Both the position numbers and the translations under genes were made by a program. The notes beneath the pieces are model-generated. The model was not told the DNA's origin, ran no database searches, and saw nothing but the letters and a program-made list of their open reading frames with translations. From Phyllosticta citribraziliensis (taxonomy: Eukaryota), in the NCBI RefSeq assembly GCF_038025025.1, contig NW_027117348.1, positions 806,001 to 870,000 of the forward strand: a stretch of 64,000 nt of DNA, read 5' to 3'. This document shows, piece after piece, positions 36,136 to 64,000 of the stretch (positions are counted from its first letter, which is position 1; each line of letters starts with the position of its first letter).

Positions 36136-37474
36136 GATAAGCGCGATGGGTGTGAGATTGAAGCACTACTGGAGCACTAATGGAGCGGGATTGGCCGTAT
36201 GGTGGACAGGTTTGATGCAGTATCCTGCGAACACGTGCAGTAGGCAAGCTCAAAAGCGATAGACTCTGCCTTAGATTGCGCTGAGCACTGTGTGATGGTA
36301 AGGCTGCATAAGGACGAAGATATGAATGAGGTCGGAATAAGCTGCGGGGACGTGCGTCGCGTGCGCACTAGCCGCGAAATGCCCGCCCGCCACTTTTGCT
36401 AGAGAAGTCTAACAACATCTACCTAACTAAATAGTCTAAGTTAGTAAAATTTATAAATTTATTCTCTTCTTATATAGTACTCTCTAGCTATATCTTTTTT
36501 AAGTACTTTTCTTATAAGAGGGCTAGCTAACTTTCTTCTTACTTCTTTAGCTACTTTATCTCTCTCTTCTACCTTCTCTCTCTATCCTCCCTATTATATA
36601 TGCGTAAAGTACCCTAACCCTAACTATAATTACTAGCTATAACTATAAGCTATATATACTAAAGTTACCTAACTTCTTAAGAGCTATAGCTACTTAGATA
36701 ATTTAACCCTAGTACCTATAGGTATAATACTAATATAATAATAGAAATAAGAATAGAGCCTCCTATACCTATAGTAGAGACTTAACTAAGTAATTAGTTT
36801 TAAGAAGTATATTACTACTAATAAGCTAGTAAACTACTATATAATATAGGATTAAGATAAGGTCTTATTCTCTTATAATACCTACCTTCCTTCTACTATA
36901 ATTCCTAAGGTAAGTTAGGTAATAGAATATAAAAGGACCTTATTATATAGATACTATAGATAACTATCTTTATTTTCTTATAATTAATACTCCTAAGTAG
37001 ACTTACTACTAATTTAACTTTTATCTTATTTATATACCCTTCTTACTTAGCTTTATCTCCTATACTTATATACTATAGTATTAGATAAATAGTTACTTAG
37101 AACTAGCCTACTAATTAGGTAACCTATTAGCTTATAATAGAAAAATAAAAATTATTAAGTTACTATATCTTTCCTTATATTAACTCTCCTATTATCTAGG
37201 AAGGTCTAAAATATCCCCTACTAAGAATACTAGGTATATATTCTAGAAATAATACCTATACTAATTAGCTAAGCCCTACTTTAAGTCTTATAGTATAAGT
37301 ATTAGTAGATACCCCTATAAGCCTAGAGGACCCCTAGATATATAGCTAGAGCTACTTTATATAAGAAGTAGAGATTAGTATATAAAGAGAATATAGGTAG
37401 TCTCCTACTCTAAAACCTCTATAGGTAATAAGGTTATATTATATAGATTAGACTAAGTTAAGAACTAGTTAACT

Positions 37475-40090
37475 ATAGCTAATCTAGAATCTAGCTATAA
37501 GAGTAGAGTAATAAGATTAACTTCTATAACTCCTCTAATTCCTTCTATATAGATAAAAGAAAACTCTAATAATCCTCTTTTAGAACTAGAGGAGAACCTT
37601 ATCTTTCTATCCTAGATATATAAAGTTAGTTTATCTAATCTAAAGCTACTTAAAGTAGTAATAGAATAGGAGCTATATAAAGAGATTATTCCTAAGCTAT
37701 TTAATAAACTCTTAAAACCTAATAAGGCTAATAAGAGTTAGTATAATAAAACTTATAAGACTAAGATTATTAAATTACTCCTTAATAAGAAATACTAAGT
37801 AGCTACTATAGAAGGAGTAATCTCCTATTATAGATAGTTTATAGACTATTATAGAAATAAGATTTTAGCTACTCTACTAGTTTATATAATAGATAAGATT
37901 ACTAAAGAATAAACTACCTAGGAGTACTTATCCTATAAGGAAACTATATTATTCTATAATTTAGCTTATATAACTATAAGCTAGCCTATTTAGAGGTACT
38001 ATATTAAGATCCTAGATCTATCTCTCCTTATAAATAGAAAAGTACCTAAGTACTAGGTCTAGCTCTACTAAGTTAAGAATAAAATCTAGACTAACTATAA
38101 CTAATTTATCTTAGATAACCTAGTAGATACTAAGATAGTAATTATAATATATATTATATCTAGGACTAATAGTAAAGTAGCTAATTACCTTCTCCCCTTT
38201 TTTAATACTAAAGAAAAAGAAGAATTACTTATTACTAATACTAATTTATATACCTTTCTTAGGAATAAATTTAATAATCTCTTTAAAGGAAAGGAAGCTA
38301 AGGATAGCCTCTAATACCTCTATTTCTATATTAGTAATAACTTCTAATTATATATTACTAAATTTATAGCTCTAGCCCTTAATATAGACCTATCCTAGTT
38401 CTAATAGAAAGAAGAGTTTTATACCTCTTTAAACTCTTAATTAAAAATATATATAATACTCTATAAGGATAATAATTATATTAAGTTCTAGAACTATATT
38501 AATAAGGTATCTACTATTATATATAACCTAAAGGACTATTAAGCTTTATATATATAAGTAAGTAAATCTAAAGCTAAATAATACTAGGAAGAATATTCTA
38601 AGAAAAAAGCTAATATTAACTTAACTACTTCTAAGAAACCTAGATATATTAGGACTTTTTTATATATTACTAAGTCTAAGGAACCTAAGAAGCCTATTAA
38701 TAATAGTAAAAAAGATATCTACTATAATTATAGAAAAGAAGGATACTAGGTATAAGATTATATAGTTTCTATTAAGGAAATAGATATATAGCCTAAAGAA
38801 GAGGAGCTTATACTTAAACTAGAAGAATCTTCTAAGAGTAGTAACTTAGAAAACTTCCTTCTCTAAACTCTAGACCTACTCTAGAGATAATAATTAGGAC
38901 CCTCTAGTTTAAAGGTATAGATATTAGAATTAATAATTTTATAGAAGGATAAGCCTTTACTATACCTATTAAGATTTATAAAAATAGAAAAGCTCTCTAT
39001 ATTAAAGTACTAATTAATACTAGTACCCTTAAGACCTACTTTATCTACCTATAACTTATATAATATCTTAATATACTTAGTATACTTAGTATATATAAAT
39101 ATAAAATTACTAGGAGTATACTTAAAGCCTTAGGATTTAATAGATAAGTAGCTACTAAATTAAAATATACCTATTTCCTTACTATTACCCTTAACTAAAA
39201 AATATATAAAATATAGGCCTTTATTATAATAATTAGTTATAATAATCTTATATTTAGGAAATATTTCTTTTCTTAGAATAACCTCTTACTAAATTATAAA
39301 AAATATAAGCTTCTTAGCTAAGATAATAAGACTCTACCTATATATAAAAAAATACTTCCCCTAGTTTACTTAGTAGTATACTAATAAGGAAAAATCTTAG
39401 AAATATACTAAAAAGACCTAGAAAGAAGAGAAAAAGCCTAAAATAATATAAAAGAGAAAGTAGTTAACTTAGGAACTAACTCCTTATTTATTCCTTTAAA
39501 CTCTCTCTTTATATAAGATAAAATCTTAGAAGTCTAAGTTATTACTCTTTAAGAAGTTAATATAAGAATTTAAGAACTTACTTTACTCTAAGAAGATAAA
39601 GAAACTATATAACTCCTTAATAAATACCTTCTACCTTAGTATAAGGAATATTAAGATATCTTTTTTAAATAATAATCTAATACCTTATCCCTATACTAGC
39701 TAGGTATTAACTATAAAATTATTATTAATAGAAATAAACCCTTTTCCCTCCCTCTAAGCCTTTTATATAGAATAATAATAGAATAACTATAAGCTATAAA
39801 AAAGTATATCCTTAAAAACCTTAAAAAGGGCTTTATAGTTAAAAGTACTATACTATATATATTACTAATTCTTATAGTCTAGAAGGGAAGTAATAATTAG
39901 ATATTCTATATAGACTACTAGTATCTAAATATATATACTAAGAAAGACCTATACCCTCTACCTCTTATCTAAGAAATTCTATAAAGAATTACTAAGGGTA
40001 AAGTATATACTAAGCTAGATATTTAATAAGTATTTTACTAAATCCTTATAGACCTAGAATCCTAGGACCTTATAATCTTCTATATATAAT
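37475..40090 (+). mobile_element. Element A: RIP-degenerate Ty3/Gypsy gag, protease and RT N-terminus, interrupted by element B
   Basis: Zinc knuckle TAC TAT AAT TAT AGA AAA GAA GGA TAC TAG GTA TAA GAT TAT (CX2CX4HX4C, about 38719-38760); gag end TTAGAAAAC near 38846; protease ALIDTGA at about 39007; RT RFCIDYR..LN..TKKDLYPLPLI, YTKLDIRQAF..DLTTF, ending at 40090. The 5' LTR is probably within 36700-37300 but could not be delimited. Confidence 0.85.
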
Positions 40091-43200: not shown

Positions 43201-44702
43201 TTATTAGTATAGTAGAGGGGTATATAGCTAAGGTCTTTAGGTTTAGTACTATCCTTTAATTTAATCTTAAAGTTAGTCTAAGGATAAGTATAGGGGAGTA
43301 GGTTATTATTATAGAATATACCTAATAGGTTATAATACTTATAGGGGATAGTATAATATAGGTAAAGCTTATTACTACTAGCTAGGATATAAGTAATTAG
43401 CTCTACTAAATAAAGTTTAGTATACTCTAGTTTATTAATAGGGGTAAAGATATAGACTAAGTAGGCTTTATAGCTATACTATTAATAAAGGATAGTAGTA
43501 TTAAAGGTACTAATTAGTATAATATTAGCTAAAGAGCTAGCCTAGCCCTAACTCTATTTATTAAGGTAACTTAAAGTCTCCTTAATAGAAGTAGAAACTA
43601 GTTTAGACTACTCTTAGTACTAATAATAGTATCTTAGTTAATAGAGGTACTCTAAGGGATAAGGTTTAAGATAGTAGAGGTATTATAGATTACTAACTTA
43701 TTTAGAGCTAGCTAAGAGGGATAGTAAGGTAGGTACTATAATAGAGTTAAGAGGTTTACTATAATATAAGATTTTAACTAGAGTTATAGTAGTAGGTATA
43801 GATAGTAATAATAGTAAGGTAGGAGCTAAGGATAACTAGCTATTATTCTAGAGGAAGGTTATACTTATAGTTAGTATTAGTAGTACTAAGGTTAATATAG
43901 AGGAGTCTAAGGATAAAGATAAAGTCTAAGATACTATAGTAGTAGGTAGTAAAGACTTAATTAGCCTATAGACTACCTAAGGTTTAACTAGTAGGATACC
44001 TCCTAACCTTAAATAGTCCTAGTAAGTCTTTATAGACTTTACCCCTCTAATACTTATTACTATATATTCTAAGTCTAGGATAAATCTAAACTGGCTTATA
44101 TACTCTAAGCTAATAAATAAATTATATATAGGACTAATCTAGGTAATTATTAGGAAAGTAAGTAGATTAAATAATATAGTAGTATTATAATCTACTAAAC
44201 TAAATAATAGGCTAGTAATAAGCTTATAAGTAAGATATTAGGGCTAGCTATAAGTATAGTTACTAATTATCTAGGGCTTATATAGCTGCTGCTTCTAAGT
44301 ACTAGTAGTAATAAGTTTATACTTAAGGGACTAACTTATATATAGGCTACTAGTATAACCTAAATTAATAAGGATATAGACTAGCTATAGGGGTATATTA
44401 GGATATATATAAATATATATAGTATAAGAATAGTAAGAAGAACCTATAACTCTATTCCCTAATTATATTAAATAACTAATAGCTGTCTTATAGGTACTAC
44501 CTCCTATTATAGTTTTATAGGAGGCTACTTATTTCCTAATATCTTATCTAAGGCTACTATATTACCTTTACTAATAATAGTAAATTCTAGCTCTTTAACT
44601 ATATCTATAAACTCCTTAGTAACCTCCTCTATAACTACTATACTATAAGTAAAGGCGCGTAGTTAGCTAATAGGGTCTAGGTATAGATAATCCTTAATCT
44701 AG
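40091..44702 (-). mobile_element. Element B: RIP-degenerate chromovirus, 5'-truncated (3' LTR, PPT, pol, gag C-terminus)
   Basis: Minus strand, de-RIPed: gag end TTAGGAAAT AAG TAG (about 44525-44539), protease LVDSGC (about 44360), RT YGTYEYLVMPFG (about 42860) and AYLDDILIYS (about 42765), RNase H VETDSSD and NYAIYDKELLAI, integrase STGYHPQTDGQTE (about 41170), chromodomain EWEVEEI..FRVRW (about 40440-40530). The PPT complement C10TCCT at 40291 is adjacent to the LTR. Confidence 0.9.
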
Positions 44703-45298
44703 TATAGGTAGGACTAGCTACTTACTAATATACTTACTTAGCTAGCTGAAATACTAGTACTAGAAGAGGTATAAGAGATAGTAACTAGTAGTAAATAAGT
44801 AGGCTCTATAGGATAGGAATAAAATAACTACTAAACTAACTAAAATAAGCTACTATCTAGCTGTCGCTTTATTATCTAAGTAGTATAAGATTTAGGTATA
44901 AATAATAAGTATAAATAAATAAATAACTAAGTATTTAGTAGATAATAGTTTAACTAAGTACCTAAGACTTTATTTATATAAGTAGTACCTCTTAATCAGC
45001 AGCTATAAAAGGGGGTATATAACTAGCTAATCTACTACTAAAAATACTAATAATATAAAACCTCCTATTACTACTAAAGATACTAAGTTTACTTATACTT
45101 TTATTAGCTATTATTATTACTACTAAACTATATAGAACTATATCTTCCTAGTATTCTAGAGCTACCTATAGTCTTATTTTCTTACTAGCCTAATCTTCTA
45201 CTTATATCTAAGCTAAAACCGCGGCTAAGAATAAGAATAATAACTGCTAAAAGTAACCCTTAAAAGCTATAAAAACTATACTAGCTAGTAGTACTATA
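44703..45298 (-). repeat. LTR of element C (left copy)
   Basis: Near-identical to 60460-61055 apart from mostly transition differences. Confidence 0.93.
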
Positions 45299-45523
45299 TA
45301 TAGGGGGGTACTCCTTATTTTACTATCCCCTAGTAAGTAAGAAGAAATAAGGATAAAAGGTAAGAGAGAGAGTATAAGCTATAGTCTATAGGAGGCTAGA
45401 TTAGAGTAGCTAATTAGTATACTACTTACCTAGGTTATATATACTCCTATAAATAGGGCTAGTAGGTAAGATATTATCCTAGTCCTTATTCTTACTATAC
45501 TTATTATAGTGCTAGATACCTAT

Positions 45524-46940
45524 TATAATAACCTTTATTTAAGAAGGTTTACTAGATCAGGAGCTTTCTAGGTAACTTTTAGATAAGCTTAATATATAAG
45601 CTTATAGAATAGAACTAGATAATTTAAATGGTATATTTCCTATCCTAATCTAGTAACTTATTAGTAAGATATTTAAAAGAGAAGGAAATACTTAAATAAT
45701 ATATCCCTATAGAAAATTACCTAGTAGATAGATAAACTTTAGAACTTCTAGATAAATACTATAGCCTCTAAGGTATTATATAATAATACTCCTTAGGCTT
45801 AGTTACCTTCTAATCTATCTTAATATATAGGTCCTTCCTATATAAAGACCTAGCTAGGACCTCCCTACCTACCTAATAGGGACTAGGATACTAAAAACCT
45901 TATACTTAGGTTCTATACTTCTATATAGTAGAAGTCTAGAATATCTTTTAGAATTACTATATCTTAACTAGTTATTAAGTTATTATAGTTAGAAGTTATT
46001 AGGAAGAATAATCTACCTAATAACTTTACTTTAATTAGGGAATCCTTACTTCCCTTAATATCTAATTAAAACTAGGTTTTATTAGAGAGTTAGTTTTACT
46101 TTAGATATAGTCTCTATATAATTATATAGGTAGTAGATAACTACTATATAATTATATAGGAAGAAAGATCCTTTCTATAATTTTTATTAGGTACTAGGCT
46201 AGTATATTTTATTAGTAGTTAAGGAAACTACTAATTAGTAAAGTACCTTCTTTCTAGTTATTCTAGTTATTAATTAGGTATTAGCTAACTCTCTAGTATT
46301 TTACTTTACTAGAAAGTACTTAGTTAGAGACTTCTATCTATTATTATATAATAGATACTAGTTCTCTTAGTACTAGAGAAAGGTATATAAGAAGGCCTTA
46401 AGTCCCTCTAGATAGCTTTTCTAGTAATAACTCTCTCTCTCTCTCTCTCTCTTTCTTTAACTCTTTAATTACTCTTTACTAAATTTACTCTTTTTACTTA
46501 AAAGACTTTTCTCTATCTATTTAAGATTACTAGTCTATTAAGATATATATCCTATAACCTACTAATAAATAGACTAGAAGGGTATAGAGATATCTCTCTT
46601 AGTATAGGCTTATATAGTAGTCTTCCTCTATATTAATATTAAAATAAGGCTATACCTCCTTACTTAAGTATTCTATTTTAGGGAACCTAGAGGTTATATA
46701 ACCTCTACTAGCTATAATCCTACCTTAGATACTTATATAATAATATATATTTATTATATTAAGGGGGCTAGGCCCTAGTATATAGTAATATCTACCTAGA
46801 GGCTAATTTCTCTCTAAGTAATTACTTAACTATTTAAGAATTATATAAGAAAATTAGGTACTTAGAGAAATTATCTATATATCTAAGCAGTCTTAGCTAT
46901 TAAGCCTATTTATAGGGATAGCCTAGGTAATACTATTATA
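45524..46940 (+). repeat. 5' LTR of element D (1417 bp)
   Basis: Starts TATAATAACC, ends TACTATTATA; aligns to 53374-54706 with indels. Confidence 0.92.
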
Positions 46941-49900
46941 GCTTTATTACTCCTAGAGAAGGTTCTCTAGGTTTTCTTAGACTTTTATCTATCTAAGTTT
47001 ATTAGAATATTAGATATACCTACTATATATCTATATTCTTTTTTACTTATTTAGACTATAGATCCTACTTAACCTATACTAGATTAGGCTACTATCTAGG
47101 CTAATATAGAGGCTTCTAATAATACTTATTTCTCTACTATAGAAAGAGTAGTAGAAGGTATTTAATCTAGCCTTAATAAGCTAAGGGTTTAATAAGAAAA
47201 TAATTAGGTACCTATACTATTAGTACCTCCTTAGGAAACCTTTAGTAATCTAAGAGATAAATACTATATTAAAGTATCTAAGCTAGATACTTATAATAGC
47301 TCTAGAAATAAATTAGAACCTTACTTAGCTTAGGTTTCTAATTATTTCCTATTCTTTAGCTATCTCTTTAGTAGTAAAGTAGAAAAAATTATATTTACTA
47401 CTTTCTTTCTAAGAGGATCTACCTTTAAATAGTTTAACCCTTTTAGATAGGATTTTAATAAGAAAGACTATTTCTATAGGAGAGATTCTATTAAGGACCT
47501 ATTTAATAGCTTTAATAGTTATATTAAAGCTATTTAGGAGATCTTTAGTATCTATAATAAAAAGAAAGATATAGAAAGATACCTTACTTAATTAAAATAA
47601 TAAAAAGCTACTATAGATTATACTACTTTATTCTAGTAATTAGCTACTAAAGTAGACTAGAATAAGGCTACCTTAATATACTAATATAAACTAGGATTAA
47701 AAGAAAGAATTAAAGATAAGCTTACTAGGTAAGATCCTCTCTCTTCTCTATCTAGTCTTATAGATTCTACTATTAGAATTAATAGTAGAAGCTACTAAAG
47801 ATATAAGGAGACTAGAGGAGTAAATTATTATAGTAAAGATACTTCTATAGGTTAAGGAGACTCTATAGATATAGGGGTAATATATAAAGAATATAACCTA
47901 TACTATCCTTCTAATCCTAAGGGGAAAAAGTCTTATAACTATAATAATAAGCCTAGCTATAAGAAAAGGAATAATAAGGGCTATTATTCTATAGCTTATA
48001 CTACTTATAAGGATCCCCTAGATACTATAAATAATAATAAAGAGTAAGGAAATAATTCTAAGGTAAAAAACTAGGAAAGGCTTTAATAAATAGGGTTACT
48101 AAAGCTACTACTTTACTTTTTAATAAAGGAAGTAAATCCCTAGTATCTATAAAGGAAGCTATACCTTATAGTAATACTAGTAAGAGAGGGAATAATTATA
48201 ATAGATACCTAGTTATTATAGTTTATCTAAATAGAATTAAAGCTAGAGCTTTAATAGATACTAGAGCCTAAGGAATATATATAGACTCTAAATTCTAGAG
48301 ATAGTATAATATAGCTATAAGGGATAAATTAATACCCTATAAGCTTTATACTATAGATAGAAGTCTAGTTAAAGAAGATAAAGGGTAGGTTTTACTAGAA
48401 ATTAAACCTATAGCCCTAGAATATAGAAAGACCTACTAGGAAAAAATTATACTAGATATTATTAAGATCCTAGGCTATAATTTAATACTTAGAATACCTT
48501 AGTTAAGGAAATAGGAGCCTATTTTAGACTTTAGAAAGTTTAATCCTATTACCTTTTACTCTAAAAATCTAGCTAATATCTATAACTATAGGTATAAAAA
48601 ATACCTATAATTATAAGATATTAAGCTAGAGATTATAGAGCCTAAAATATAGATATCTACTATATCCTATAAGTCTCTTAAGAAGAAAAGAAAAAATAAA
48701 GATATCTTTATTTACTAGTATAAACTAGATAAATTACCTACTCTTATAAAACTAAGGCCTATAAACTATAATTTAAAGAATATAGATATTTAAGACCCTA
48801 CTAGGCTAAATATCTAATCTAGGAAGCTACTTAAAACTATTTATAATACTAAGGAAAAAATACTCCTTAGTAAAAGAAGTAGTAAAGATAGCTCCTTAGA
48901 AAAAAGTTATATAGAAAAGGTCCCTAAGGAATATTATTAATACCTAGATTTATTTCTTAATAAAGAGGATTCTAGTACTTTACCTAAATACTAGCCTTAG
49001 GACTATAAAATTCCTATAAAAGAAGAAGAAAATCCTATATTTAGTCTTATATATTCTCTATTTAATATAGAATTAGAGGCTCTTAAGACCTATTTAGATA
49101 AGAATATAAGAAAAGGTTATATTAAACCTTCTTCTTCTCCTTATAGATCTCCTATATTATTTATACCTAAATCTAATAGTAAATTATACCTCTATATAGA
49201 CTACTATAAGCTTAATAGTATAACTATTAAGAATAGGTAGCCCCTACCTTATATAGATAAACTATAAGATAGGTTTAATAGTACTAAATATTTTACTAAG
49301 TTAGATTTAAGAGATAGGTATTATTTAATAAGGATAAAAGAAGGAGAAGAGTAGAAAACTACCTTTAAGACCTACTTTAGATTATTTAAATATTTAATAA
49401 TACCCTTTAGCCTTACTAATACTCTAGCTACTTTCTAGGTACTTATAAATAATACTCTAAAAGAATATTTAGATATCTTTATAACTACCTATCTAGATAA
49501 TATTTTAATCTACTCTAATAGTCTAGAGGAGTATAAAGAATATATATTAAAGGTTTTAGCTAAACTAGAAGAAAGAAGACTTCTAATTAAGCCTAAAAAA
49601 TATATATTCTCCTCCTAAGAAGTTAAATTCCTAGGATTTATAATAAGGCCTAATAAAGTCCTTATAGATTCTAATAAAGTAAAGTCTTTATTAGAATAGC
49701 CTACTCCTAAGACTATTAAAGAGATATAGTCCTTTCTAGGGTTCTATAACTTTTATAGAAGATTTATAAGAGACTATAATAAAATAGCTAAACCTCTTAT
49801 ATACCTTACTAAAAAAGATATACCCTTTAACTAGATTAAGGAGTAAGAAGATTCTTTAAATAAATTAAAAGAGGCTTTTATTACTACCCTAATTTTAAAG

Positions 49901-52149
49901 ATCTTTAATTATAAATCTCCTATTACTTTAGAAACTAATACTTTAGATTATACTATAGGGGCTTATATAAATTAACCTAATATAGAAGGAAACCTTTATC
50001 CTATAGCTTATTACTCTAGAAAGCTATCTCTAGTAGAATTAAATTATAATATCTATAATAAAGAATTACTAGCTATAGTAATAGCTTTTAAAGAATAGAG
50101 ATATTATTTAGAAGGCTCTAAATATTCTATATCTATTATAATAGACTATTCTAATTTAAGGTACTTTACTAGTACTAAATAATTAACTTACTATTAAACT
50201 AGATAGTTAGAAATACTATCTAACTATAATTTTACTATTTCCTACTATAAAGGAAAGGATAATAATAGGGCTAATACCTTATCTAGATACTTAGACTATA
50301 TATTAAATAAGGAGTCTACTCTTAAGACTATATTTAATAAAATAGAAAATAGAGATTTAATTATTAATAAACCTTAAGTAAATATACTATATAAGCCTAA
50401 ATTAAAGCCTAATAAGAACTCCTCTTATTAGCCTATAATTAGGTCTATAGCTACTCTTACTAGAAGTCCTAGTAAAGAAGAGGAAGAATAAGAATTAGAA
50501 GAAATACTAATAGATTTACCTATAAAAAATAGGCCTATATTAACTACTCCTAAAGAATTCTATAATTCTATACCTAGTATAGAAGATATAGTAATTTCTA
50601 AAGATATCCCTATAGGTATAGAAGATAATATATCTAATTCTTCTACTCCTTCTTCTACTTCTTCTACCTCTATCCTATTTAATACTAGCTAGGAAGAACT
50701 CTTTAAGAATAGTTATTCTAAAGATACTATAGCTTAGGAACTATTATTAGCTACTAATAATAAGGATCTAGATATTAAAATAATAGATAATAGATCTATT
50801 ATATTTAAGGGGCTACTTTATATACCTAAAAAATAGTATAATACCCTTATAAAGGCTATATATAAATCTCCTATCTATAGATACTAAGGAATAACTAAAA
50901 TAGTAGAAAGAATTAGCTAGAACTTTTATATACCTAGTTTATATAAAAGATTAAGAGATATCCTTAAAAGTTACCTAGAATATATTAAATCTAAGTATTT
51001 TAGATATATACCTTATAGAGCTCTTAAACCTATTAAACTACCTAATTAGCTATAAAATTCTATAGCTTTAGATTTTATAATTAAGCTACCTAGCTCTAAA
51101 GTCCCTAGATCTAAAGATATATTTAATAGTATTTTAGTTATTATTAAAAGGATAACTAAATTCTCTTACTTTATACCTTATAAAGAAGATTTTAATATTA
51201 AGATACTAGTATATACCTTCTTTAGGTATATAATTAGTTAATATAGAATACCTAGGACTATAATCTTAGATAGAGATTCTAAATTTATATCTAAATTCTA
51301 GTAAACCCTTATAAATTAACTAGGATCTAAAACTAAATTATCTATAGCTTATTATCTATAAATAGATAGTTAAATAGAAAGAATAAATTAAGTAATAGAG
51401 TAATATCTTAAGATATACTCTAATTATTAATAAAATAATTAGGTATCTCTATTACTATTAGCTTAATTTACTTATAATTCCTCTATAATAGAAACTACTA
51501 GAATAAGTCTATTTTATACTAATTATAGCTTTAAGCCTAATTACTTTAATAAACCTAAACTCTATAATAAGTTAGCTTAGGACGCTATTATAAAATCTAA
51601 TAATTTAAAGGAGTTATATAAATCTTTAGTTAAGGATATATATTTTATCTCTTATAAAATAGCTAAATATTATAACTAATAGTATAAGAATGTACTAAAC
51701 CTTAAAGAGGGGGATAAAGTATTTTTATTAAAAAGAAACCTCTCTATAAGATAACCCTCTAAAAAATTAGACTATATAAAGGTAGGACCTTTTAAAATTA
51801 TTAAAAAGGTCTTAAGTCTAAACTATAAATTATAACTACCTAAGGACTTACCTATATATCTAGTATTCTATATATTACTATTAGAAAAGTACCTAGATAA
51901 TATACCTCTTATAACTAATAGAGAAGCTAAAGACTCTCTATTAATAGATAAAGATTATAAGGTAGAAAAAATACTAGACTATAAGTACTATAAGGGAGCT
52001 TATAAGTACTTAATTAAATAGCTAGACTATCTATCTAATAAGAACTCCTAGGAACTAGAGGAAAACCTTATAGGAGCCTAGGATTTACTTAAAGAATTTA
52101 AGGAGAAGTATCTTAATAAATTTATTAAGAAAAAGAAATATAAGTACCT

Positions 52150-53290
52150 ATACTTTTCTTCTACTTAGTTATTTATATAACTACTTATATAAAGTCTTAT
52201 TAAGCTTATTTTAAGCTTAATACTAGGCTAATATACCTAAAACTAATATCTATCTTAAGACTTACTTCTACTATAACTTCTAGCCTTAATAGTAGAAGAA
52301 CTAGTAGTATAATTTAAGAAATCTTTATATATTTATAATCTATAAATCTTTCTAGATCTTTTAATATATAATATTATATAATCTACTATAGGAAAAACTA
52401 TACTACTTAAAGAGGAGAAAACCCTTTCCTTAATAATTACTTAACTAAATATAGATAGATTTTTAAAATTTTTATATTCCTAGAATAGTAAAATTCTACT
52501 CTTTAGGACTATATATTTACTTAGGTCTATATACCCCTAGTACTACTCTAATAAAAGGAAAGAAAAAAAGAGAAAATTTACCTTCTCTTATAAAAAATAT
52601 TTAAAAGAGAGACTATAGTTATATTTCTTTTAGGCTACCTTTACTAAGGCCTATATATAAAGGTTCTAAATAGTTCTAGAACTAGAACTAGTTAGAACTA
52701 AAGAAATTAGTACTAGTAGAGACTTCTTCTTCTCCTAGATAAGTAGGTAAGGTATAGCTATTATATACCTTATCCTCTAGCTCTAGAATAGGACTAGAAT
52801 TCTAAATATATTCTATACTTAAATTAGAAAAGTCCTAGATCCTTTAAAGGGTATCTCTAATCTTAGCTAGCTCTCTTTCTAGAGAAGAAACTTATTTCTC
52901 TAGAACCCCTATCTTAGCTCTTTTATTTAGAATAGACTACTCTATCTTATAGATCTTATTCTTAAGGCTATTTAGGGGAGTCCTTTTAGCCTTATAGGGT
53001 TACTTAGCTATATATATATTAGTATTATACTTATATATATAGTTAAGAGTAAAGGACTTACTAAAAGAGTAAGTTATCTTATTCTTTATATAATTTATAT
53101 AAGAATAAATAGTAAATAGTTCTCCCTTAGGATTATCCTTATCTTAATTAGACTAAGTATAGCTTAAATAGTAATAATATTTATAGTTTTTAAGGTAGGA
53201 TTAGTAGGGTTTCTTATCTTTATCTAAAAGGCTAGATCCCTTACCCCTATTAAATAAAGGGATATAAGGGTATTAGGTAGAAAGAGATAT
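52150..53290 (-). pseudogene. RIP-inactivated antisense cargo gene of element D: Zn2Cys6-like cluster, basic linker and coiled coil, with 1-2 introns
   Basis: TAC/TAT codons at 53206, 53197, 53176, 53101, 53092 and 53071 give C-x2-C-x6-C-x24-C-x2-C-x6-C. Intron 53061..53008 (GTAAGTCC, TACTAAT, TAG). The spliced frame continues into a heptad repeat. The 3' end and second intron (about 52581..52509) are less certain. Confidence 0.7.
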
Positions 53291-53373
53291 AATTACTCTA
53301 TCTAGGACTAGACCTCTATAGTCTCTATATACTTATAGAATATAGGATATATTCTAGGAAGGAGAGAGATAGC

Positions 53374-54706
53374 TATAATAACCTTTATCTAAGAAGGTTT
53401 ACTAGATTAGGAGCTTTCTAGGTAACTTTTAGATAAGCTTAATATATAAGCTTATAGAATAGAATTAGGTAATTTAAATAGTATAATTCCTATCCTAATC
53501 TAGTAACTTATTAGTAAGATATTTAAAAGAGAAGGAAATACTTAAATAATATATCCCTATAGAAAATTACCTAGTAGATAGATAAACTTTAGAACTTCTA
53601 GATAAATACTATAGCCCCTAAGGTATTATATAATAATACTCCTTAGGCTTAGTTACCCTCTAATCTATCTTAATATATAGGTCCTTCCTATATAAAGACC
53701 TAGCTAGGACCTCCCTACCTACCTAATAGGGACTAGGTTATTATAGTTAGAAGTTATTAGGAAGAATAATCTACTTAATAACTTTACTTTAATTAGGGAA
53801 TCCTTACTTCCTTAATATCTAATTAAAACTAGGTTTTATTAGAGAGTTAGTTTTACTTTAGATATAGTCTCTATATAATTATATAGGTAGTAGATAACTA
53901 CTATATAATTATATAGGAAGAAGGATTCTTTCTATAATTTTTATTAGGTACTAGGCTCTAGATTAATTAGGCTAGTATATTTTATTAGTAGTTAAAGAAA
54001 CTACTAATTAGTAAAGTACCTTCTTTCTAGTTATTCTAGTTATTAGTTAGGTATTAGCTAACTCTCTAGTATTTTACTTTACTAGAAAGAATATACTTAG
54101 TTAGAGACTTCTATCTATTATTATATAATAGATACTAGTTCTCTTAGTACTAGAGAAAGGTATATAAGAAGGCCTTAAGTCCCTTTAAATAGCTTCTCTA
54201 GTAATAACTCTCTTAACTCTCTTCTTTAACTCTTTAATTACTCTTTAAATTTACTCTTTTTACTTAAAAGACTTTTCTCTATCTATTTAAGACTACTAGT
54301 CTACTAAGATATATATCCTATAACCTACTAGTAAATAGACTAGAGGGGTATAGAGATATCTCTTTTAGTATAGGCTTATATAGTAGTCTTCCTCTATATT
54401 AATACTAAAATAAGGCTATACCTCCTTACTTTAGTATTCTATCTTAGGGAACCTAGGGGTTATATAACCTCTACTAGCTATAATCCTACCTTAGATACTC
54501 ATATAATAATATATATTTATTATATTAAGGGGACTAGGCCCTAGTATATAGTAATATCTACCTAGAGGCTAATTTCTCTCTAAGTAATTACTTAACTATT
54601 TAAGGATTATATAAGAGAATTAGGCACTTAGGGAAATTATCTATATATCTAAGCAGTCTTAGCTATTAAGCCTATTTATAGGGATAGCCTAGGTGATACT
54701 ATTATA
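53374..54706 (+). repeat. 3' LTR of element D (1333 bp)
   Basis: Same termini as 45524-46940; preceded by the PPT. Confidence 0.92.
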
Positions 54707-57700
54707 CTACTACCTTATATAAGTACTCCTTAACCTAGTAGTAAAAATAGGTAGTTACTCCTAGGAAGCCCCTTAATAATTTAAGGTCTTAGGAAGTATC
54801 CTAATTATTAATCTTATCTACTTTAGACTTAGTAGGTAGGTATCTAAACTCTCTATATCTAAACCTAATAACTTCTACTTCTAGTATACTAAAGAAGGAC
54901 TTCTCTTTTAAGATTATAAGTCTAACTAGTTCTAGGTTCTATAGTATATTATTAATATCCTAGATATACTTAAGTATAAATTACCTAACTCCTATAACTA
55001 TACTTTCTATATTATTATATTAGCTCCTTTATTAGCCTCCTATAATATTATCTATAAAAAGGTTAGCCTTATCCTATTAGTTATCTAGTATATATCTTAG
55101 GCTATAAACTACCTATCATAGAGAATTAATTATACCTTAGGAAAGTATATAATTATACTAGTATCTCTAGAGATTAATAAATCTAGTAAGATCCTAATAC
55201 TTTTTAGTAACTATAAACTAATTAAAACTAGAGTATAGGTCTATAAGGGTATATATTATAAGCCCTTCCTAGTATTCTATATAGTTATCTATTAGTCCTA
55301 GTATACTAGTATCTTAAATAGTAATATTATTTAGTATTTATAGATTATTAATCTACCTATATATACTATTCTTCTTAGGTAAGACTATCTAGGGATTATA
55401 ATATTAACTAGAGTAGTACTTAATAATTCCTATATCCTACTAGGTAGTAAGTAAGTTAAATATATACTATATTTTAGCTTATAAGATATATAATACTCTA
55501 ACTCTCTAGGCCTTATATAGTATTATCTTAATAGGGAACCTATATATTACTATTAGTTTAACTTATCCTATTTCTAAAAGGTTAAATAAGATAGTACCCT
55601 CTCTACTATATAGTATTTCTAATATTAGTTCCTACTCTCTTAGCTAGAGGTTATCTCTAGTAATAAGGCTAACTAGCCTTTCCTATATAAGGTATATACC
55701 TAGTTAAAAAATAATAATCCTTAGATAAAATAAGTAGGTAAATTATCCCTAGCCCTAGAGGTCCCTTACTAGTATAGTAGTCTACTTAGTAATTATAATT
55801 TCTTTAGTTTTCTACCTCTTAATTATATTTAATAACTCCTCCTATAGTATTAAGTTATCTATAGGCTCTATCTTTATACCTTTTTATTTATATACTATAT
55901 ACTAGTGCGGGTTTTATTATCTAGTAGTATTAAGATAATTAGGAAATATACTATACTAAGATACCCTATAATAAAAAATACTCTATTCTCCTATTATATA
56001 TATAGTTAAAAACATATCATCTAATACTAAATTAGTAATTTTAGTATTTTATTTATTTTAATTATATAGGCCTCCTACTAGTTAGTATAGTAATTATATA
56101 CTAATTAGCCCCTAAATTATTATACTAGCTAGTTTTCTAGCCCTACTACTTATATACTATTACCACTTTAAATTCTAATAGGACTAATATAGTATATAGT
56201 ATCTTTAATACCTTTAATAAATAGGAATGCCTAGTAGGTAATAATTTCTATATAGTAATAAGGGTTAATAGGGTAGGTAAACCTTAGCTTAACTACCCTA
56301 GTAGGTATAGTTTTAAATTTACTACCTATTAAGATAATCTAGGGTATTCCTAATATAATAGGGATAGTAGTTTAGTTATATACTAGGAAATAAGTACTCT
56401 AGGACTAATCTCCTATTTAAATAGCTAAACTTAGGATCTATTATTTAATTTTATACTTTAAACTATTTATAAACCCTATAGTTATATTAAAACTATTAGG
56501 TAGTATATCCTATACTAGGATACTAAGTTTAGCTATAAGGGCCTTAGAAATACTATTTATATTTACTCTAGTATCTACTAGTACTCATACTATATAGCTA
56601 CTAAAGGATACTAGGATAAAGGGTAATAGGATATAGTAAATAATAAGGCCCTATTACTTAGCTAGTATTATAACCTCTTTATAGGTTATTAGCTTTAGCT
56701 TACTATCTCCTCTAGTAGTTATAGAATCTTCCTAACCCTCTAGTAATTTAATACTAAAGTATATCTTATATATTAATAGGTCTATAGGCTTACTATCCTA
56801 AAGGGGCTTACTATTAGGCCTATATAAAATAAAGCTCTAAGTAGGTATATACTTTATAGTATATACTAGGCTTATATATATATAGTTAAAAATTCTAGAG
56901 ATAGTTTTACCCTTAGTAACTAATATATTAGTTAGTATATTTAAATATATAAAGATCCTATCTAGGAAATAATCTTCTTATTTAAATAGGTAATACTAGG
57001 AGAAGTTAAATTCTATAGGCTTATTAGAGGAGTTAAACTAGTACCCTTTAATATTATTAACTAGTTCTATATATATAGTACGTATTAGCTTCTATAGGTC
57101 CTCTATTATATATAGGTATTTATTTAGTACCTATAGGTTATTATAAAGTATTTCTTAGACCTCTTCTATAATCTTAGTACTAATAGGAGTATAAAATAAC
57201 TTCTATATATTATTATATAGGCTAAGGATTCCTTTTATATACCTAATAGTCTCCTTATTAAAGATATCTCTATATCTCTAGCTATTTAGTCCTAGTTTAT
57301 ACTATTTATAATAGAATAGGTCTCTAAATATAATAGTTTTAACCTAGTACTACTTAGGGGGGGCCCCTTTACTAAGTAGCTCTAGCTTATTATTCTCTAA
57401 TCCCTTAAGTATAATACTTAGCTTATTTTATAGGATTTCTTTAATATTAGATATATCTTTATTAGTATCCTCTATAGTTACTCTTTAAGGTTTATCTATA
57501 TTAGGCTCCTAAGTAGGCTCTTTACTAGAGATAATAGGTTCTTTAATATTACTACCTAGTAGACTAGTAATAGCTAGTTATCTTAGCTATTAAGGTATAT
57601 TTATTAGTAGGGTTATACCTAGGATATCCTTATTAGATATATTCCTAGTCTTATTAGTTATTACCTACTTAGCTATATTCCTAACTTATTTATTAATAGC

Positions 57701-60459
57701 TATTTTATTAACTATAACTTATAAGATTTTAGCTCCTCTTCTCCTAGCTAGCTTCTTTAGCTTCCTTATATATTTTATAATCTTTATTAGGTTTATAAAG
57801 ATTATATTTCTAGGGGGTACTTTAGCCTTAAAATAGTATATACTATATATTATCCCTTTATTATAATAGTAAATCTAATAGAAATAAGGCTAGCTATCCT
57901 CTATATTAGTCTAAGTATAGTTAATCTAAATATACTAGCCCTAGTCCTAGTTATATTAGTCTTAGTTATATTAGCTATAGTCTAAAGGTATATTATATCT
58001 AGTATTAATTTATAGTAGGGGCTAATATCCTTATAGTTCTTTATTTAATATAGATTAAGATAATAACTCTCCCCTAGTCTAGTAGGGAGTTACTTATTAT
58101 TCTAGTACTAGTAGTATTTTTAGTAAATTATTATTATTTATCTATCCCTAATACTATAAGTACTTCTTAATATCTAGCTATTTATTCCTCTTATAAGTTA
58201 ATATTAGCTAGCTATTAAAGTCTTAGATATATCTATTTTAACTAATAGATATAAGGCTAGTATATATAAATAGTAATAGAATAGGATAACTCCTAACTAT
58301 ATAGCTAGTCTTATTATAACTCTAGTATTCTCCTATTCCTATACTTTAATTTATATTTAAACTAGTAGGTCTAGCCTAGTTATAAGAGTTAAGGTTATAT
58401 TATAGTTAGCCTATAGGAGCTATCCTAGGTAGTAGTAGCCTTATTAGTAGAAGACTAGGACCTACTTATAGAGTATATTATCCTAGTAGTAGTATATACT
58501 ACCTAGCTAGCTAGTCTATTCTAATAGAGCTATTATAGGGAAATAATAACTAGATAACCCTTATATATAGGTCCCTACTACTTATAATATATCTATACTT
58601 CTTACTATCTATAAGCTATTTATAGATATAGCTAGTAGCCTCCTAGATTAATTTAATATATATCTTAGCTAGCTTATCTACTAGGTCTTTAACTATAGTA
58701 TTATTACTCTTTACTAAAGGGGTCCTAGTCTTAGAGGTTAACTATCTACTTAAAGCTATAGTTATAGAGGAAGAGCTATTTAAGGATAATATTATAAGTA
58801 GTAGAGGGGACCTAGGAAGATATCCCCTTCCTATTAGTATAGGGTCTATAATATAGTCTAATCCCTTAATATAGTATATAACTATATTTATAACCTCTAG
58901 TAAGTCTATAGAGTATAAGGCTATATACTATTTATATTCTAGTTAGGCCTTAATATATAATTAGAGGTACTAAATATTCCTAGCCCTATAAGATAAGTAC
59001 CCCTTATATAAGAATCTAGTTTATATATCTATATATAGGGTATTAAGGAACTATATCTCTTATAGGCTTTTATTAATATATCCTTCCTCTACTACCTTAT
59101 TACTAAGTATCCTATAAAGCCTAAAGAACTTATCTACTTTAGAGGGGTAATAGAGGTCCTTATATCTCTTAGCTAAGTTCTTAATATAGCTCTAGTTCCT
59201 ACTAATTATACTAGTATCTTAGTTCTTATATTATACTAGTATCTAGACTTTTAGACCTTCCTAATCTCTAGTCTAGAACTTAATAGTATAGTAGATCTCT
59301 AGGCTAATTAGGGTTTTATAATACTAAACTAGCTTTAGTATAAACTCTTCTAGGAGACTCCTAGCTATAGTTATAGTATAGAAGTATTTATATATCTTAA
59401 GGAATAATAATATATTATCTCCCCTAAACTATAGCCTTTACTTTAGTACTAGTATCTAGCTTATTAGGATTATCTATATTAGGGAAGCTATTCTTATATA
59501 GTATTAGTTAGCTTCTATTAATAATAATAACTCCCTACTATTCTAGGGGAGAGTTATTTCTATAGTATCTAGTATTAGCTAATTAGCTTAGCTTAGCTAT
59601 ATTATTTTATTACTATCTATCCCTAGTAGTAGTATAATTATAGGAGGTGTACCTAGTCTAGTAAAAGGTCTAAATAAACCCTTAGCTAGCCCTACACCTT
59701 ATAAGGGAGCTTAGGTACTAATTACTAGTAATAGGGGTACTATAGATAGTCCTCCTTAAGTAATTATAGGCCCCTACTACTAGCCTCTAGAAGAGTACCT
59801 ACTACTATAAGAACTAGATTATTATCCTTTCCCTCTATCTCCTCCTAATATACCTCTTCCTCCTTATCTATTTCTTCCTAATCTACTAGAAGAACTTATA
59901 GTTCTTATAGGTAGGCTATTAAATTTATTATATAATTATATCTAAATCTACCTTTATAACTCATTATATAAACTACTAACCTTATAATATAATAGAATAG
60001 TCTAAGAAACTTAATAGGCCTTAGTAATCTAATATATATAATATAACTATATAAAAACTAGAGAATTAACTATCTAGGCTTATCCCCTATACTTTATAGG
60101 TAGAAATACCTAGAATAATATTATACTTAATAAAAATAGAACTAATTATAATTAGATAGTATAGTAATATTATTCTATAAAGTATATACTAACCTACTAT
60201 AAAATTATAAGCATTAATCTTATAGCTTATATAGTATTTATAAAATAGTACCTAAAATAAATAAGTAAATAATTACTAGTATAATAGTAATAACCAGTAT
60301 AGTAAATATATAATAATAGGCTAGGTAGGAGAGGGTAAAATTAATAGTACTTATTAGTAATATCCTAAAGCCTTTTACTTACCTAATTTCTGCCACTATT
60401 ATATATTTATATAATTAGGTAATAGTAAGCTCCTAATCTATAGAAGCTATACTATAAAA

Positions 60460-61055
60460 TATAGGTAGGACTAGCTACTTACTAATATACTTACTTAGCT
60501 AGCTAAAATACTAGTACTAGAAGAGGTATAAGAGATAGTAACTAGTAGTAAATAAGTAGGCTCTATAGGATAGGAATAAAATAACTACTAAACTAACTAA
60601 AATAAGCTACTATCTAGCTATTACTTCATTATCTAAGTAGTATAAGATTTAGGTATAAATAATAAGTATAAATAAATAAATAACTAAGTATTTAGTAGAT
60701 AATAGTTTAACTAAGTATAAAAGACTTTATTTATATAAGTAGTACCTCTTAATAAGTAGCTATAAAAGGGGGTATATAACTAGCTAATCTACTACTAAAA
60801 ATACTAATAATATAAAACCTCCTATCACTACTAAAGACGCTAAGTTCACTTATACTTTTATTAGCCATTATTATTACTACTAAACTATATAGAACTATAT
60901 CTTCCTAGTATTCTAGAGCTACCTATAGTCTTATTTTCTTACCAGCCTAATCTTCTACTTATATCTAAGCTAAAACTATAGCCAAGAATGAGAACAACAA
61001 CCGCTAAAAGTAACCCTTAAAAGCCGCGAAAACCGTGCCGGCTAGCAGTGCCATA
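60460..61055 (-). repeat. LTR of element C (right copy, 5' LTR)
   Basis: Repeat of 44703-45298; the last ~80 bp retain CG, CA and TG dinucleotides. Confidence 0.93.
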
Positions 61056-64000
61056 CTAGGTGCTAGAATACTTCTCTACTAAATACTAACTTAATATTTA
61101 ATAAGCCTAATAGTTAGAAAAACTTACTAAATACTATATATAATTTATATATAGGCTAGGAAAAGATAATATTATTACTAATACCCTTATATAAAAATAA
61201 GAAGAGCTATAAACCTAGAAGAATAAGAGTATTACTAGGTATATAATATAATTTATAGCTAAAGACTAGATTCTTAATCTAAATACCCTTAATATTACTT
61301 TTAGTAGCTTATTCCTAATCCTAGATAGAGTACTAGAAGTAAATAAAATATCTAGTATATTAGAAGAATAGTATATATAAGCTTATAAACCTAATAAGAA
61401 GGATTAGACCCTTTATAATAACTATCTCTTCTTTAAGAAGTACCTTATAGTTCCTAAATAAGAAACCTTATATATAGAGCTAGTAAATAAAATTTACTTA
61501 TTATTACTACTTATATATACTAGATAAAATAAAACTTAGGAAATAGTAAGGAGGTACTACTACTAGCTAGGTATTACCTAGTAAATTAATAATATTATAA
61601 AGGCCTACTATATATACTAAAGAAATATAAACTTCTATAATAAGAAACTAGGACTATACTAACCTCTCCTAATTCTAGACTAGGTATAGTAATATATTAC
61701 TATAGATTTTAAAGAGATATCTAAGGATAAATCTAGGTATAATACTATTCTAGTATTTATAAACTAGCTAAGTAAGTAAATCTTTAGCCTCCCCTACTAT
61801 AAGACTATTAATATTAAGGGTATTACCTAACTATACTATTAGTATATTTAGAGAATATATAGTATACCTAAATTAATAGTTTCTAACTAAGGACCCTAGT
61901 TTATTTTAGATTTCTAGAATAAGCTATATATAATTACTAGTATTAAATAGAAACTTACCTTAGCCTACTACTCCTAGACTAATAGTACTATTAAAATTAT
62001 AAACTAGGTTATTAATCTATATCTATAACTATATATTAGCTATTTCTAGGATAATTAGGTAGAAAGACTCCTAGTATTAGACTTTATATAAGTAATACTC
62101 CTATATAAATCTATAGATATATCCCCCTATAAGTTAATCTTTAGCTACTAGCCTAGCTTCCTATTTAATTAGGAGAAATATACTATATATCTAGAGCCTA
62201 TAAAGAAACTATCTTATATTACTATATAGAAGTTTACTAGATATATATAGGAAACTATATAGTAGGCTAAATAATAACTAGGTCTTACCTAGGAATAAAT
62301 AGTATAAGCTATAAACTAATTCTAATAGGAACTAGACTTTAAGGAAGGTAATAAGGTATATATCTCTATATAGGGTATAAGTACTAATAGGCCTAGTACT
62401 AAACTTAATATTTAGAATTAAGGACCCTACTATATCTATAAGAAAAAGGGATACTCTTATAAGCTAGAACTCCTAGTATATACTAGAGTTATAAACCTCT
62501 TCTATATACACTACTTATAGAAGGCTTATTCCCCTTTACTAGGCTAGGTTTCTATTCTTAAACCTTTAATTATCTACTAGAACTAAGAAGAGTATAAAGT
62601 TAACTTTATATATAATAGTAAGGTAGAATAAGGTACCCTAAAGTACTAAGTATAATAAAAAGAATATAATTAAGATAATATATAGTATAAGGCCTTAGAT
62701 ATAGTTAGTATCTCTAATTAAATTAAGAAGTACTATACTAAATTTCCTAAGATACTAGGACTACTAAAGTACTTATAAGACTAGAAAGATATAATAGTAT
62801 ATAAGCTAGATTATAAAGGTACTATAAAGAATAATAAGCCTACTCTCTAAGTAGCTAACTAAAACTAAACCCTCTAATACTACTAGAAAATATAGGATAC
62901 CCTCTAGAAAAACCTATTATATACTAAGAAAACAGATTATTAAGGCTCCCCCTCCTATAAACCCTCTACCTTAGACTAATAGATAAGGGCCTTAGCCTAA
63001 AGCTAATTACCTAGACTATATAGTAGTAGAGATATACCTTAATAATCTATAAAAGTATTATTACTAAAACTATCTACTAGGGAACTATAAGGGGTAATAG
63101 GACTATATATAATCTAGGTATAGATATAGGTATAGGGGGGTACTATAGGAATAGGTAATAGTAATAATAATAAGGATAAAGAGGATATCTTAAGACTAGA
63201 AACCTATAGTAGTATAGTAGTAAAAGAACTAGAAATAGATAAAGAAGCTATATATACTAGATTAAATAGACTAGTATTACTACTATTAGATTTATTAGAT
63301 AAAGAGGATATATTAGATAAAAAAGAAGGGCTAGACTTTCTAGATAAGAAAGAAGGACTTAGTTTATTAGAAGGGATATATTTACTAGGTATAGGTAAGG
63401 ATAAAGAAGAATAGGCTATTAAGAGAATTATAGAAACTATATAACTAAAAACTCTTATAGGTATATATAGAATTATTACCTTCTATTCTAGAAGGGTAGT
63501 ATTACTAGATAAAGAGGTAATAAAAGTAGGACTAGTAGAGATAGTAGAAATAGTAGAAGTAGAATTAATAAATAGAATATCTAGTATATAGATAGATAAA
63601 GGTATATTATTAAAAGGATTAATAGGGCTAGTCTTAGTCTCCTTAGAAGAAGAAGTATTAGTATCTAGTATAGGCTTATCCTTTAAAAATAGACTACTAA
63701 GACTAGTTATAAAGTTATCTAGATAATTAGGGACCTTATCTAAGGGATTATACTAGCTATTATAAATATAGTTATCTATATTATATATACTATAAGAGAA
63801 AGTACTATTATCCTACTTATAATTACTATAGTTACTACTAAAGAAACTAGGAATCTAGTAATAACTAATAAATAGATAATAGATACTATTAGATAGCTTA
63901 GTATATATATAGTACTTATAATTAGTACTCTATAGAATACTAATAAATTAGATAGCTATAATAGAGACCTAAGAATAATAATAATATAGGTTATCTATTA
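61056..64000 (+). mobile_element. Element A': RIP-degenerate chromovirus from the RNase H end through integrase and chromodomain, plus an antisense extra ORF; runs off the window
   Basis: ALEYFSTKRQLN.RQARW, YRPGKDN..ADAL, GLHQPLPIPDRVWQHITMDF (about 61650), VSDRGPQF, SAYHSQTDG, GPY, chromodomain EEYEVDFI..KYQV.W (about 62590); pol stop near 62850. It may be the 3' half of element A. Confidence 0.88.
62880..64000 (-). pseudogene. RIP-inactivated antisense ORF with a DUF3716-like Cys cluster and long Ser/Thr/Pro-rich tail (5' end beyond the window)
   Basis: De-RIPed AIQ..G......C..C...........PF..C.RIPGFFGGNCGNCKW......SCS at about 63955-63790. The same frame continues about 300 codons with only sparse RIP-type TAG/TAA stops. 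Confidence 0.7.

Follow-up and report, generated by a model that had tools for sequence, protein, structure and literature searches.

The window analysed here, meaning the whole stretch of 64,000 bp from the fungus Phyllosticta citribraziliensis (contig NW_027117348.1), carries in its AT-rich right-hand part two long terminal repeat (LTR) retrotransposons, called D and A', and the subject of this report is the region that follows the chromodomain at the end of pol in each of them, referred to below as the slot. Both slots hold a coding-like relic on the minus strand, tail-to-tail with pol, and four measures agree on this. From about 36,500 to 64,000, the GC content is 22–29% (about 25%), and the DNA is saturated with the products of repeat-induced point mutation (RIP); this AT-rich block is a nest of fungal Ty3/gypsy chromoviruses. 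Its composition is the end state of RIP: over all six frames Cys makes up at most 0.1% of the codons, Tyr 9–12% and stops 11–14%, and in the seven RIPed coding frames that were checked Cys was 0.000 throughout and His at most 0.002. The outcome of RIP is that TGY (Cys) and CAY (His) codons become TAY (Tyr) and that ATG becomes ATA, as seen in a gag CCHC zinc knuckle near 38720, which now reads Y-x2-Y-x4-Y-x4-Y. Because Cys and His codons have been turned into Tyr in this way, any "Cys motif" in the block is a back-inference from Tyr and is absent from the sequence itself. Coding frames are named +f0, +f1 and +f2 or −f0, −f1 and −f2 throughout, and RIPed stops were read through.

Element D is complete, spanning 9,183 bp from 45524 to 54706, and A' is represented by the end of its pol and the region beyond it. 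The features of the two elements are as follows.

45524–46940, plus strand: 5' LTR of D, 1417 bp, with ends TA..TA that correspond to RIPed TG..CA; direct repeat with 53374–54706
46941–48200, plus strand: gag relic of D in frame +f0, recognized by stop depletion and the frame classifier
48200–52108, plus strand: pol of D in frame +f2, with reverse transcriptase (RT), RNase H, integrase, SH3 and chromodomain; 4–9 stops per 150 codons
52109–52624, no strand assigned: spacer of the D slot, in which no frame stands out
52625–53354, minus strand: antisense relic of D in frame −f1, about 243 codons, adjoining the polypurine tract
53355–53373, plus strand: polypurine tract of D, directly before the 3' LTR, read from the sequence
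53374–54706, plus strand: 3' LTR of D, 1333 bp
61056–62950 (end approximate), plus strand: pol fragment of A' in frame +f1, running from the end of RNase H through integrase and SH3 to the chromodomain
62951–63203, no strand assigned: spacer of the A' slot, with no clear coding signal
63204–64000, minus strand: antisense relic of A' in frame −f2, with a stop at 63204–63206, cut by the window end

The two LTRs of D are 94–97% identical, and the 4-bp flanks (CTAT on the left, CTAC on the right) are one RIP-type change apart, compatible with a target-site duplication altered by RIP. Its pol gave Pfam matches in a single frame to RT_RNaseH (expectation value (E) 6.6e-14), SH3_Tf2-1 (3.6e-10), Chromo (8.2e-6) and Integrase_H2C2 (8.8e-4). 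With this pol order and a C-terminal chromodomain (51956–52108), LTRs, a polypurine tract and a target-site duplication, D is a chromovirus. The distance from the chromodomain to the polypurine tract is 1,246 bp, and since D is complete in its LTRs, polypurine tract and target-site duplication, this 1.25-kb slot was transposed as part of the element.

By Pfam alone, A' gave a weak match to SH3_Tf2-1 (E 0.005). Its pol is nevertheless collinear with that of D from the end of RNase H to the chromodomain, at 31% identity (E 2e-14 by BLASTP and 3e-21 by tblastn), with the SH3 domain at 62347–62523 and the chromodomain at about 62572–62751, and the frame classifier described below favours +f1 up to about 62950. 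A first-pass annotation of this DNA had taken D and A' for two distinct chromoviruses, and the divergence of the two pol sequences bears this out.

Antisense coding signal in the two slots

D and A' have a common layout, in which pol is followed by a spacer of about 250–500 bp and the spacer by a minus-strand frame, its 3' end first. Counted per 150 codons, stops in the D slot number 7–10 in −f1 (52700–53450) against 11–29 in the other frames, and those in −f2 of the A' slot number 2–4 (63200–63950), compared with the 4–9 of D pol. The D relic, read from 53371, has 15 RIP-type stops in its 249 codons, and the A' relic has 7 stops in its 264. Three-base periodicity, taken as the chi-square of base against coordinate modulo 3, gave the following values.

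D relic, 52650–53353: p=6.5e-5 (chi-square 27–29)
D relic without tandem repeats, within 52692–53354: p=1.8e-4
D spacer, 52131–52649: p=0.71
D 5' LTR, 45524–46940: p=0.83
D 3' LTR, 53374–54706: p=0.095
A' relic, 63136–63750: p=1e-12
A' relic, last part, 63751–64000: p=6e-6
A' relic without tandem repeats, within 63136–63765: p=1.2e-5
A' spacer, 62751–63135: p=0.17

The strand of the signal can be read from base composition at codon position 2, where A exceeds T and C exceeds G in all four verified sense segments (D pol, D gag, minus-strand pol and A' pol). Read as −f1, the D relic has A at.451 against T at.268 and C at.174 against G at.106 in this position, with G peaking at position 1 and T at position 3, and the plus frame in register with it, which is the pol frame, has the opposite position-2 pattern. 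A sense C-terminal extension of pol was considered for the same stretch; the position-2 signature in D is that of a minus-strand sense frame, and such an extension is therefore excluded there. The antisense frame is in register with the pol frame in D only (−f1 with +f2), the frames of A' being out of register.

A position-specific base classifier trained on the known segments identified the correct frame in 11 of 16 windows under leave-one-element-out validation, against about 3 expected by chance; a 64-codon usage classifier was dropped because its training data were too few. The lead of −f1 in the D relic was 15.8–16.2 nats (14.2 without the tandem repeats), and that of −f2 in the A' relic was 16.7 nats (9.4 on the 490 bases left without them). 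Among 42 null windows of 730 bp, drawn from LTRs and other regions, the maximum lead was 8.7 nats and the 95th percentile 5.8; six named LTR windows gave 0–3.0 nats. A lead of at least 10 nats combined with at most 10 stops occurred only in the two slots and in stretches with pol similarity or a gag-type CCHC relic. In the sliding scan, the pol signal of D is gone by about 52250, no coding signal is present from 52250 to 52625, and −f1 then runs from 52625 to the polypurine tract; in A', pol extends to about 62950, little is seen until about 63200, and −f2 follows to the window end.

Taken together, stop depletion, periodicity and frame classification uphold the proposal of the first-pass annotation that an antisense accessory slot is present in two chromoviruses. 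It had further placed an antisense region after the chromodomain, tail-to-tail with pol and between pol and the polypurine tract; the orientation and order hold in both elements, and the position between pol and the polypurine tract is established for D only. D thus has an extra coding region after pol and before the 3' LTR, antisense to gag-pol, in the sense of a statistical signal without an intact open reading frame (ORF).

The same measures bear on whether there was a gene at all, as the relics could be by-products of composition and low complexity in RIP-saturated DNA, in which case the one protein match of A' (P0001, below) would be to a spurious gene model. Several observations weigh in this direction and so against an antisense gene. 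The A' relic is Ser-rich, and its period-9 and period-27 tandem repeats supply part of its periodicity. The classifier was wrong in 5 of its 16 validation windows, +f0 and −f2 tie over the last 206 bases of the window, and both LTR copies of a further element, X, which are non-coding, reach 8.4 and 9.9 nats, though with 16–17 stops. A start codon could be located in neither relic, and a stop not in the D relic either. Random ORFs are also frequent in the GC-rich DNA of this genome, with 62 of at least 150 codons in 36.5 kb. However, the D relic is not low-complexity, and in both slots the periodicity and the classifier lead outlast removal of the tandem repeats at the values given above; the LTRs of D and the spacers of both slots are without periodicity, high leads with few stops are confined to the slots and to pol- or gag-like stretches, and all three indels between A' and P0001 keep the frame. 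We therefore regard the absence of any gene as distinctly improbable.

Relatives of the relics and the nature of the product

The minus frame of A' matched one protein, P0001, a 333-aa "uncharacterized protein" of Phyllosticta citribraziliensis (E 6e-16). Residues 170–333 of P0001 align with 63743–63207 on the minus strand and end at the same stop (tblastn, E 8e-34, 46% identity), so that the strand favoured statistically in A' (−f2) is also the one on which P0001 aligns. The three indels that separate the two sequences (11, 11 and 7 aa) all preserve the frame, which would happen about 1 time in 27 by chance and is therefore mild evidence for coding constraint. Most of the differences checked are of RIP type (H to Y, D to N, A to T, E to K, P to L and S to F), and the window copy therefore has the look of a P0001-like sequence altered by RIP. 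As regards P0001 itself, its C-terminal half is homologous to the antisense strand of a retrotransposon relic, and it is probably a repeat-derived gene model.

Evidence for other copies came from contigs of public runs of three other organisms (X4, X6 and X7), which cover 30 of 30 bins of 44500–64000, both slots included. Among the differences in the X6 and X7 contigs, A>G and T>C predominate; in X6 they number 323 and 345, compared with 100 for C>T and 76 for G>A. At most of the differing sites these contigs show G or C and the window A or T, and less-RIPed copies therefore exist elsewhere. In X6 the summed depth of the contigs runs into the thousands, and the families seem to be highly repeated there.

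Considering all these results, we propose to read the relics of D and A' as accessory ORFs of the aORF-3R type, antisense and killed by RIP, in the stretch that separates pol from the 3' LTR, and we give this reading a rough probability of 0.58. To the adverse points already listed, the following must be added. A' lacks its 5' part, being truncated at 61056, and the window ends before its 3' LTR. The contigs from the other organisms are too short (200–900 bp; listed pieces 234–894 bp) to link slot and pol in other copies. P0001 may be a spurious gene model on a repeat: it has no Pfam domain at E<=1, found itself alone among 8000 candidates scored when used as a query, and is predicted to be disordered (predicted local distance difference test (pLDDT) 0.31, predicted template modelling score (pTM) 0.17), and its residues 1–169 have no match in the window. 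For the D relic in −f1, a word-indexed protein search gave 0 of 3839 candidates at E<=0.01 and a HMMER search over 1.84 billion representatives gave 0 at E<=0.001, while its search against PDB sequences gave CCDC39 alone, in a single row that was not significant (E 0.34) and had no stretch that qualified.

Further searches were also negative within their scope. The A' relic had no match among PDB sequences, P0001 had no usable feature match in the Atlas (template modelling score <= 0.29), and two metagenome scans, with P0001 and then with alignment A2, gave no relative. The relics of D and A' have no detectable similarity to each other (E=5), in a comparison to which RIP leaves little power, and a 71-nt DNA match (69%) between the two slots was rejected because it fails in alignment.

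These results are relevant to another explanation, in which fragments of host genes or mobile elements were captured once in antisense and kept a residual codon periodicity without ever serving the retrotransposon. Such passengers need be related neither to each other nor to a known family, as is the case for the two relics; the spacer of about 250–500 bp without signal that parts each relic from pol would fit them too, as would the annotation of P0001 as a stand-alone gene. On the other hand, position and orientation are identical in two element families, the D relic adjoins the polypurine tract, and the contigs of the other organisms cover both slots as they do the neighbouring pol. No paralogue of either relic was found elsewhere in the window, its 36 kb of ordinary genes included, and P0001 is without relatives outside the repeat. 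Passenger fragments are thus an unlikely source of the two relics.

The first-pass annotation had described the cargo as six-Cys DNA-binding proteins, Zn2Cys6-like with a coiled coil in D and DUF3716-like with a Ser/Thr/Pro tail in A', with the LTR, host genes or silencing as possible targets of their action. A zinc-binding regulator would be in keeping with the conversion of Cys and His codons to Tyr, as in the gag knuckle near 38720, with YxxY pairs within the Tyr-rich stretches of both relics, and with the basic stretch and heptad-spaced hydrophobic residues of the D relic. DUF3716 genes are moreover carried by REP9, a class II (IS3EU) transposon of Zymoseptoria tritici (PMC8232023), the one link of this domain to mobile elements in the literature searched. 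Like the present elements, REP9 is mobile, fungal and equipped with accessory genes whose function is unknown; unlike them, it is a DNA transposon, and no DUF3716 was found in the window or in P0001.

The searches did not recover such domains. In the minus frames of the two slots, Pfam at E<=10 matched neither Zn_clus nor DUF3716, nor bZIP; the sole match in these frames, APAF1_C at E 0.18, was taken as chance. In the six frames of 50001–64000, with stops as X, nothing relevant to the cargo was found at E<=0.01. On the little-RIPed P0001, DUF3716 (PF12511) and Zn_clus (PF00172) were absent at E<=1, although the Tyr-rich part at 63744–64000 has no unRIPed counterpart there, and the part of P0001 homologous to A' has no Cys cluster. 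Zn2Cys6 domains have the spacing CX2CX6CX5-12CX2CX6-8C. With either Cys or Tyr allowed at each Cys, this strict spacing was absent from both slots (0 matches) and occurred 3 times in other parts of the RIPed block, a test whose power RIP limits. The looser pattern CxxC..C..CxxC..C, with Tyr for Cys, does occur in both slots; it also occurs 170 times in about 55,000 codons (27.5 kb in six frames), and about 0.8 such motifs are therefore expected per slot frame of 250 codons, which is the chance level. The densest Tyr clusters in the slots hold 11 and 10 residues per 40 aa, within the range of five control frames (7–12). A six-Cys DNA-binding identity is therefore unsupported, yet it is not disproved, as RIP erases the evidence either way, and we rate the zinc-binding regulators as very improbable.

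Returning to RIP-killed antisense accessory ORFs, a plausible model can be outlined. D and A' are dead copies of two chromovirus families, and each would have carried an antisense accessory ORF while active. This gene may have been transcribed from a promoter in or next to the 3' LTR, because the D relic reaches the polypurine tract; a scan for bacterial promoters and terminators, which is unsuited to a fungus, remained at shuffle level. To judge from its position, the product could act on the element's own life cycle or expression, and the convergent transcript could pair with the 3' end of the genomic RNA. In the translation of D, a basic stretch followed by heptad-spaced hydrophobic residues over 3–4 heptads was read by eye, and the D protein might accordingly have comprised a Tyr-rich part (formerly Cys, His or Tyr), the basic stretch and a coiled coil of 3–4 heptads. 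The A' relic consists of a Ser/Thr/Pro-rich tail (63207–63743) and a Tyr-rich part from 63744 to the window end; its protein would have ended in a disordered Ser/Thr/Pro-rich tail, preceded by an N-terminal part that is truncated here by the end of the window. Judged from their codons, neither relic is functional now, with stops present and all Cys and nearly all His and Met codons mutated.

Neighbouring relics and known antisense layouts

The block holds other relics besides those of D and A'. One further feature is needed here.

60460–61055, no strand assigned: right copy of a 596-bp repeat, 94% identical to 44703–45298; no pol similarity inside

The two copies are probably the LTRs of element X, a very degenerate element (44703–61055) that holds D. 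CTAG is present at both outer ends of the pair, and the right copy interrupts the pol of A' inside RNase H. D was inserted 225 bp from the left LTR of X, which leaves 45299–45523 and 54707–60459 as the interior of X; the sole coding-like signal in it is on the minus strand at about 56750–58100, without a Pfam match. A blastn comparison of 43300–45600 with 59000–61400 under lax scoring showed nothing but noise outside the 596-bp repeat. In the right copy, the final ~35 bases (61020–61055) are GC-rich and look un-RIPed, and the left copy has the RIPed version (45263–45298), so that this patch escaped RIP in one copy only.

Further pol relics lie on the minus strand at 43349–40950 and on the plus strand at 39640–40050. 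On the plus strand, a gag relic at 37400–39050 (+f2), which contains the RIPed CCHC knuckle near 38720, is followed by the RT relic at 39640–40050 (+f1). These gag and RT relics (37400–40050) may be the 5' part of the A' element, split from it by later insertions; if they and A' are one element, about 270 codons of RT and RNase H are missing. Regarding the minus-strand element, the first-pass annotation had proposed an "element B" with a 197-bp LTR and no cargo region. No such LTR pair was found around it, either by self-comparison of the window, which gave two good direct-repeat pairs only, or by a dedicated search. The lack of a cargo region does agree with the space available, as the pol signal of this element stops near 40400 and the RT fragment of the next element ends at 40050, leaving no room for a long slot.

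Outside the block, bases 1 to about 36,300 have 52–63% GC and contain ordinary fungal genes, which in this GC-rich half encode a cyclin, an SNF2 helicase followed by a RING finger, an Aminotran_5/MOSC protein, SHR3 and a YTH/RRM protein. The ORF of the SNF2-related helicase is at 18334–22551 on the plus strand with the RING finger in the next ORF, and the two look like a Rad5/Rad16-type gene split by an intron or frame change, which would be ordinary. The edge between GC-rich genic DNA and the RIPed AT-rich block is sharp, at 36300–36500, the last gene being that of the SHR3 chaperone (35458–36165, minus strand).

An accessory antisense slot in a fungal chromovirus has already been described. 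The brtn gene of the Boty-like element in Botrytis cinerea and Sclerotinia sclerotiorum is said to have been described by Zhao et al. in 2011 (Virology 417:248). Three papers place brtn, an antisense gene, in Boty-like chromoviruses of Botrytis and Sclerotinia, where it follows pol and precedes the 3' LTR (PMC7264820, PMC8365987, PMC4227169). According to them, the gag-pol of the Boty-like element that carries brtn has a CHROMO domain (PMC4227169), brtn is found in BcGypsy1 with other additional ORFs in other Botrytis elements (PMC8365987), and Boty is listed beside Grande1, RIRE2, Retand and PvRetro13 among the elements whose antisense aORFs lie between pol and the 3' LTR and have no known function (PMC7264820). 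D and A' share with Boty an antisense coding region after pol, which lies between pol and the 3' LTR in D, the LTR of A' being outside the window. They differ in that the hosts of Boty are Leotiomycetes and that of the window is a Dothideomycete, and in that the window copies are RIP-dead and belong to two unrelated families in one genome; they are likened to brtn by layout, not by sequence.

A comparable arrangement is found in plants, where the aORF-3R elements Grande1 (maize), RIRE2 (rice), Retand (Silene) and PvRetro13 (Phaseolus) are described as elements whose antisense ORF is placed after pol and before the 3' LTR and is conserved within each family (PMC7264820). These are plant Ty3/gypsy elements, and the likeness to D and A' is again one of layout only. 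They belong to the Tat lineage and are not chromoviruses. The human T-cell leukaemia virus type 1 (HTLV-1) is a retroelement with an antisense gene, HBZ, at its 3' end, and the 3' LTR drives the transcription of this gene. HTLV-1 is a vertebrate retrovirus and HBZ a defined bZIP protein, whereas the slots gave no bZIP match, so this is an analogy only.

What is new in this study is therefore not the slot as such but two candidate cases in two unrelated families of one genome and in another fungal class, the relics being probable new, dead examples of a layout already known. A wider claim would be that in fungal chromoviruses in general the slot after the chromodomain is filled independently by unrelated antisense genes whose products or convergent transcripts regulate the element or silencing; this is a tentative extension, and one we hold to be doubtful at present.

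For the reading of such loci, our results also call for caution, because Cys and His codons read as Tyr in RIP-saturated DNA and Cys-motif readings taken from it are no evidence. If the proposed arrangement is true in intact copies, the antisense accessory layout would extend from Boty, the one fungal case found in the literature searched, to two more families. This would suggest that the slot is a recurrent feature of fungal chromoviruses and would provide comparative material on the function of antisense ORFs. The value of D and A' is that they point to families whose natural intact copies could show the repeated acquisition of antisense genes in this slot.

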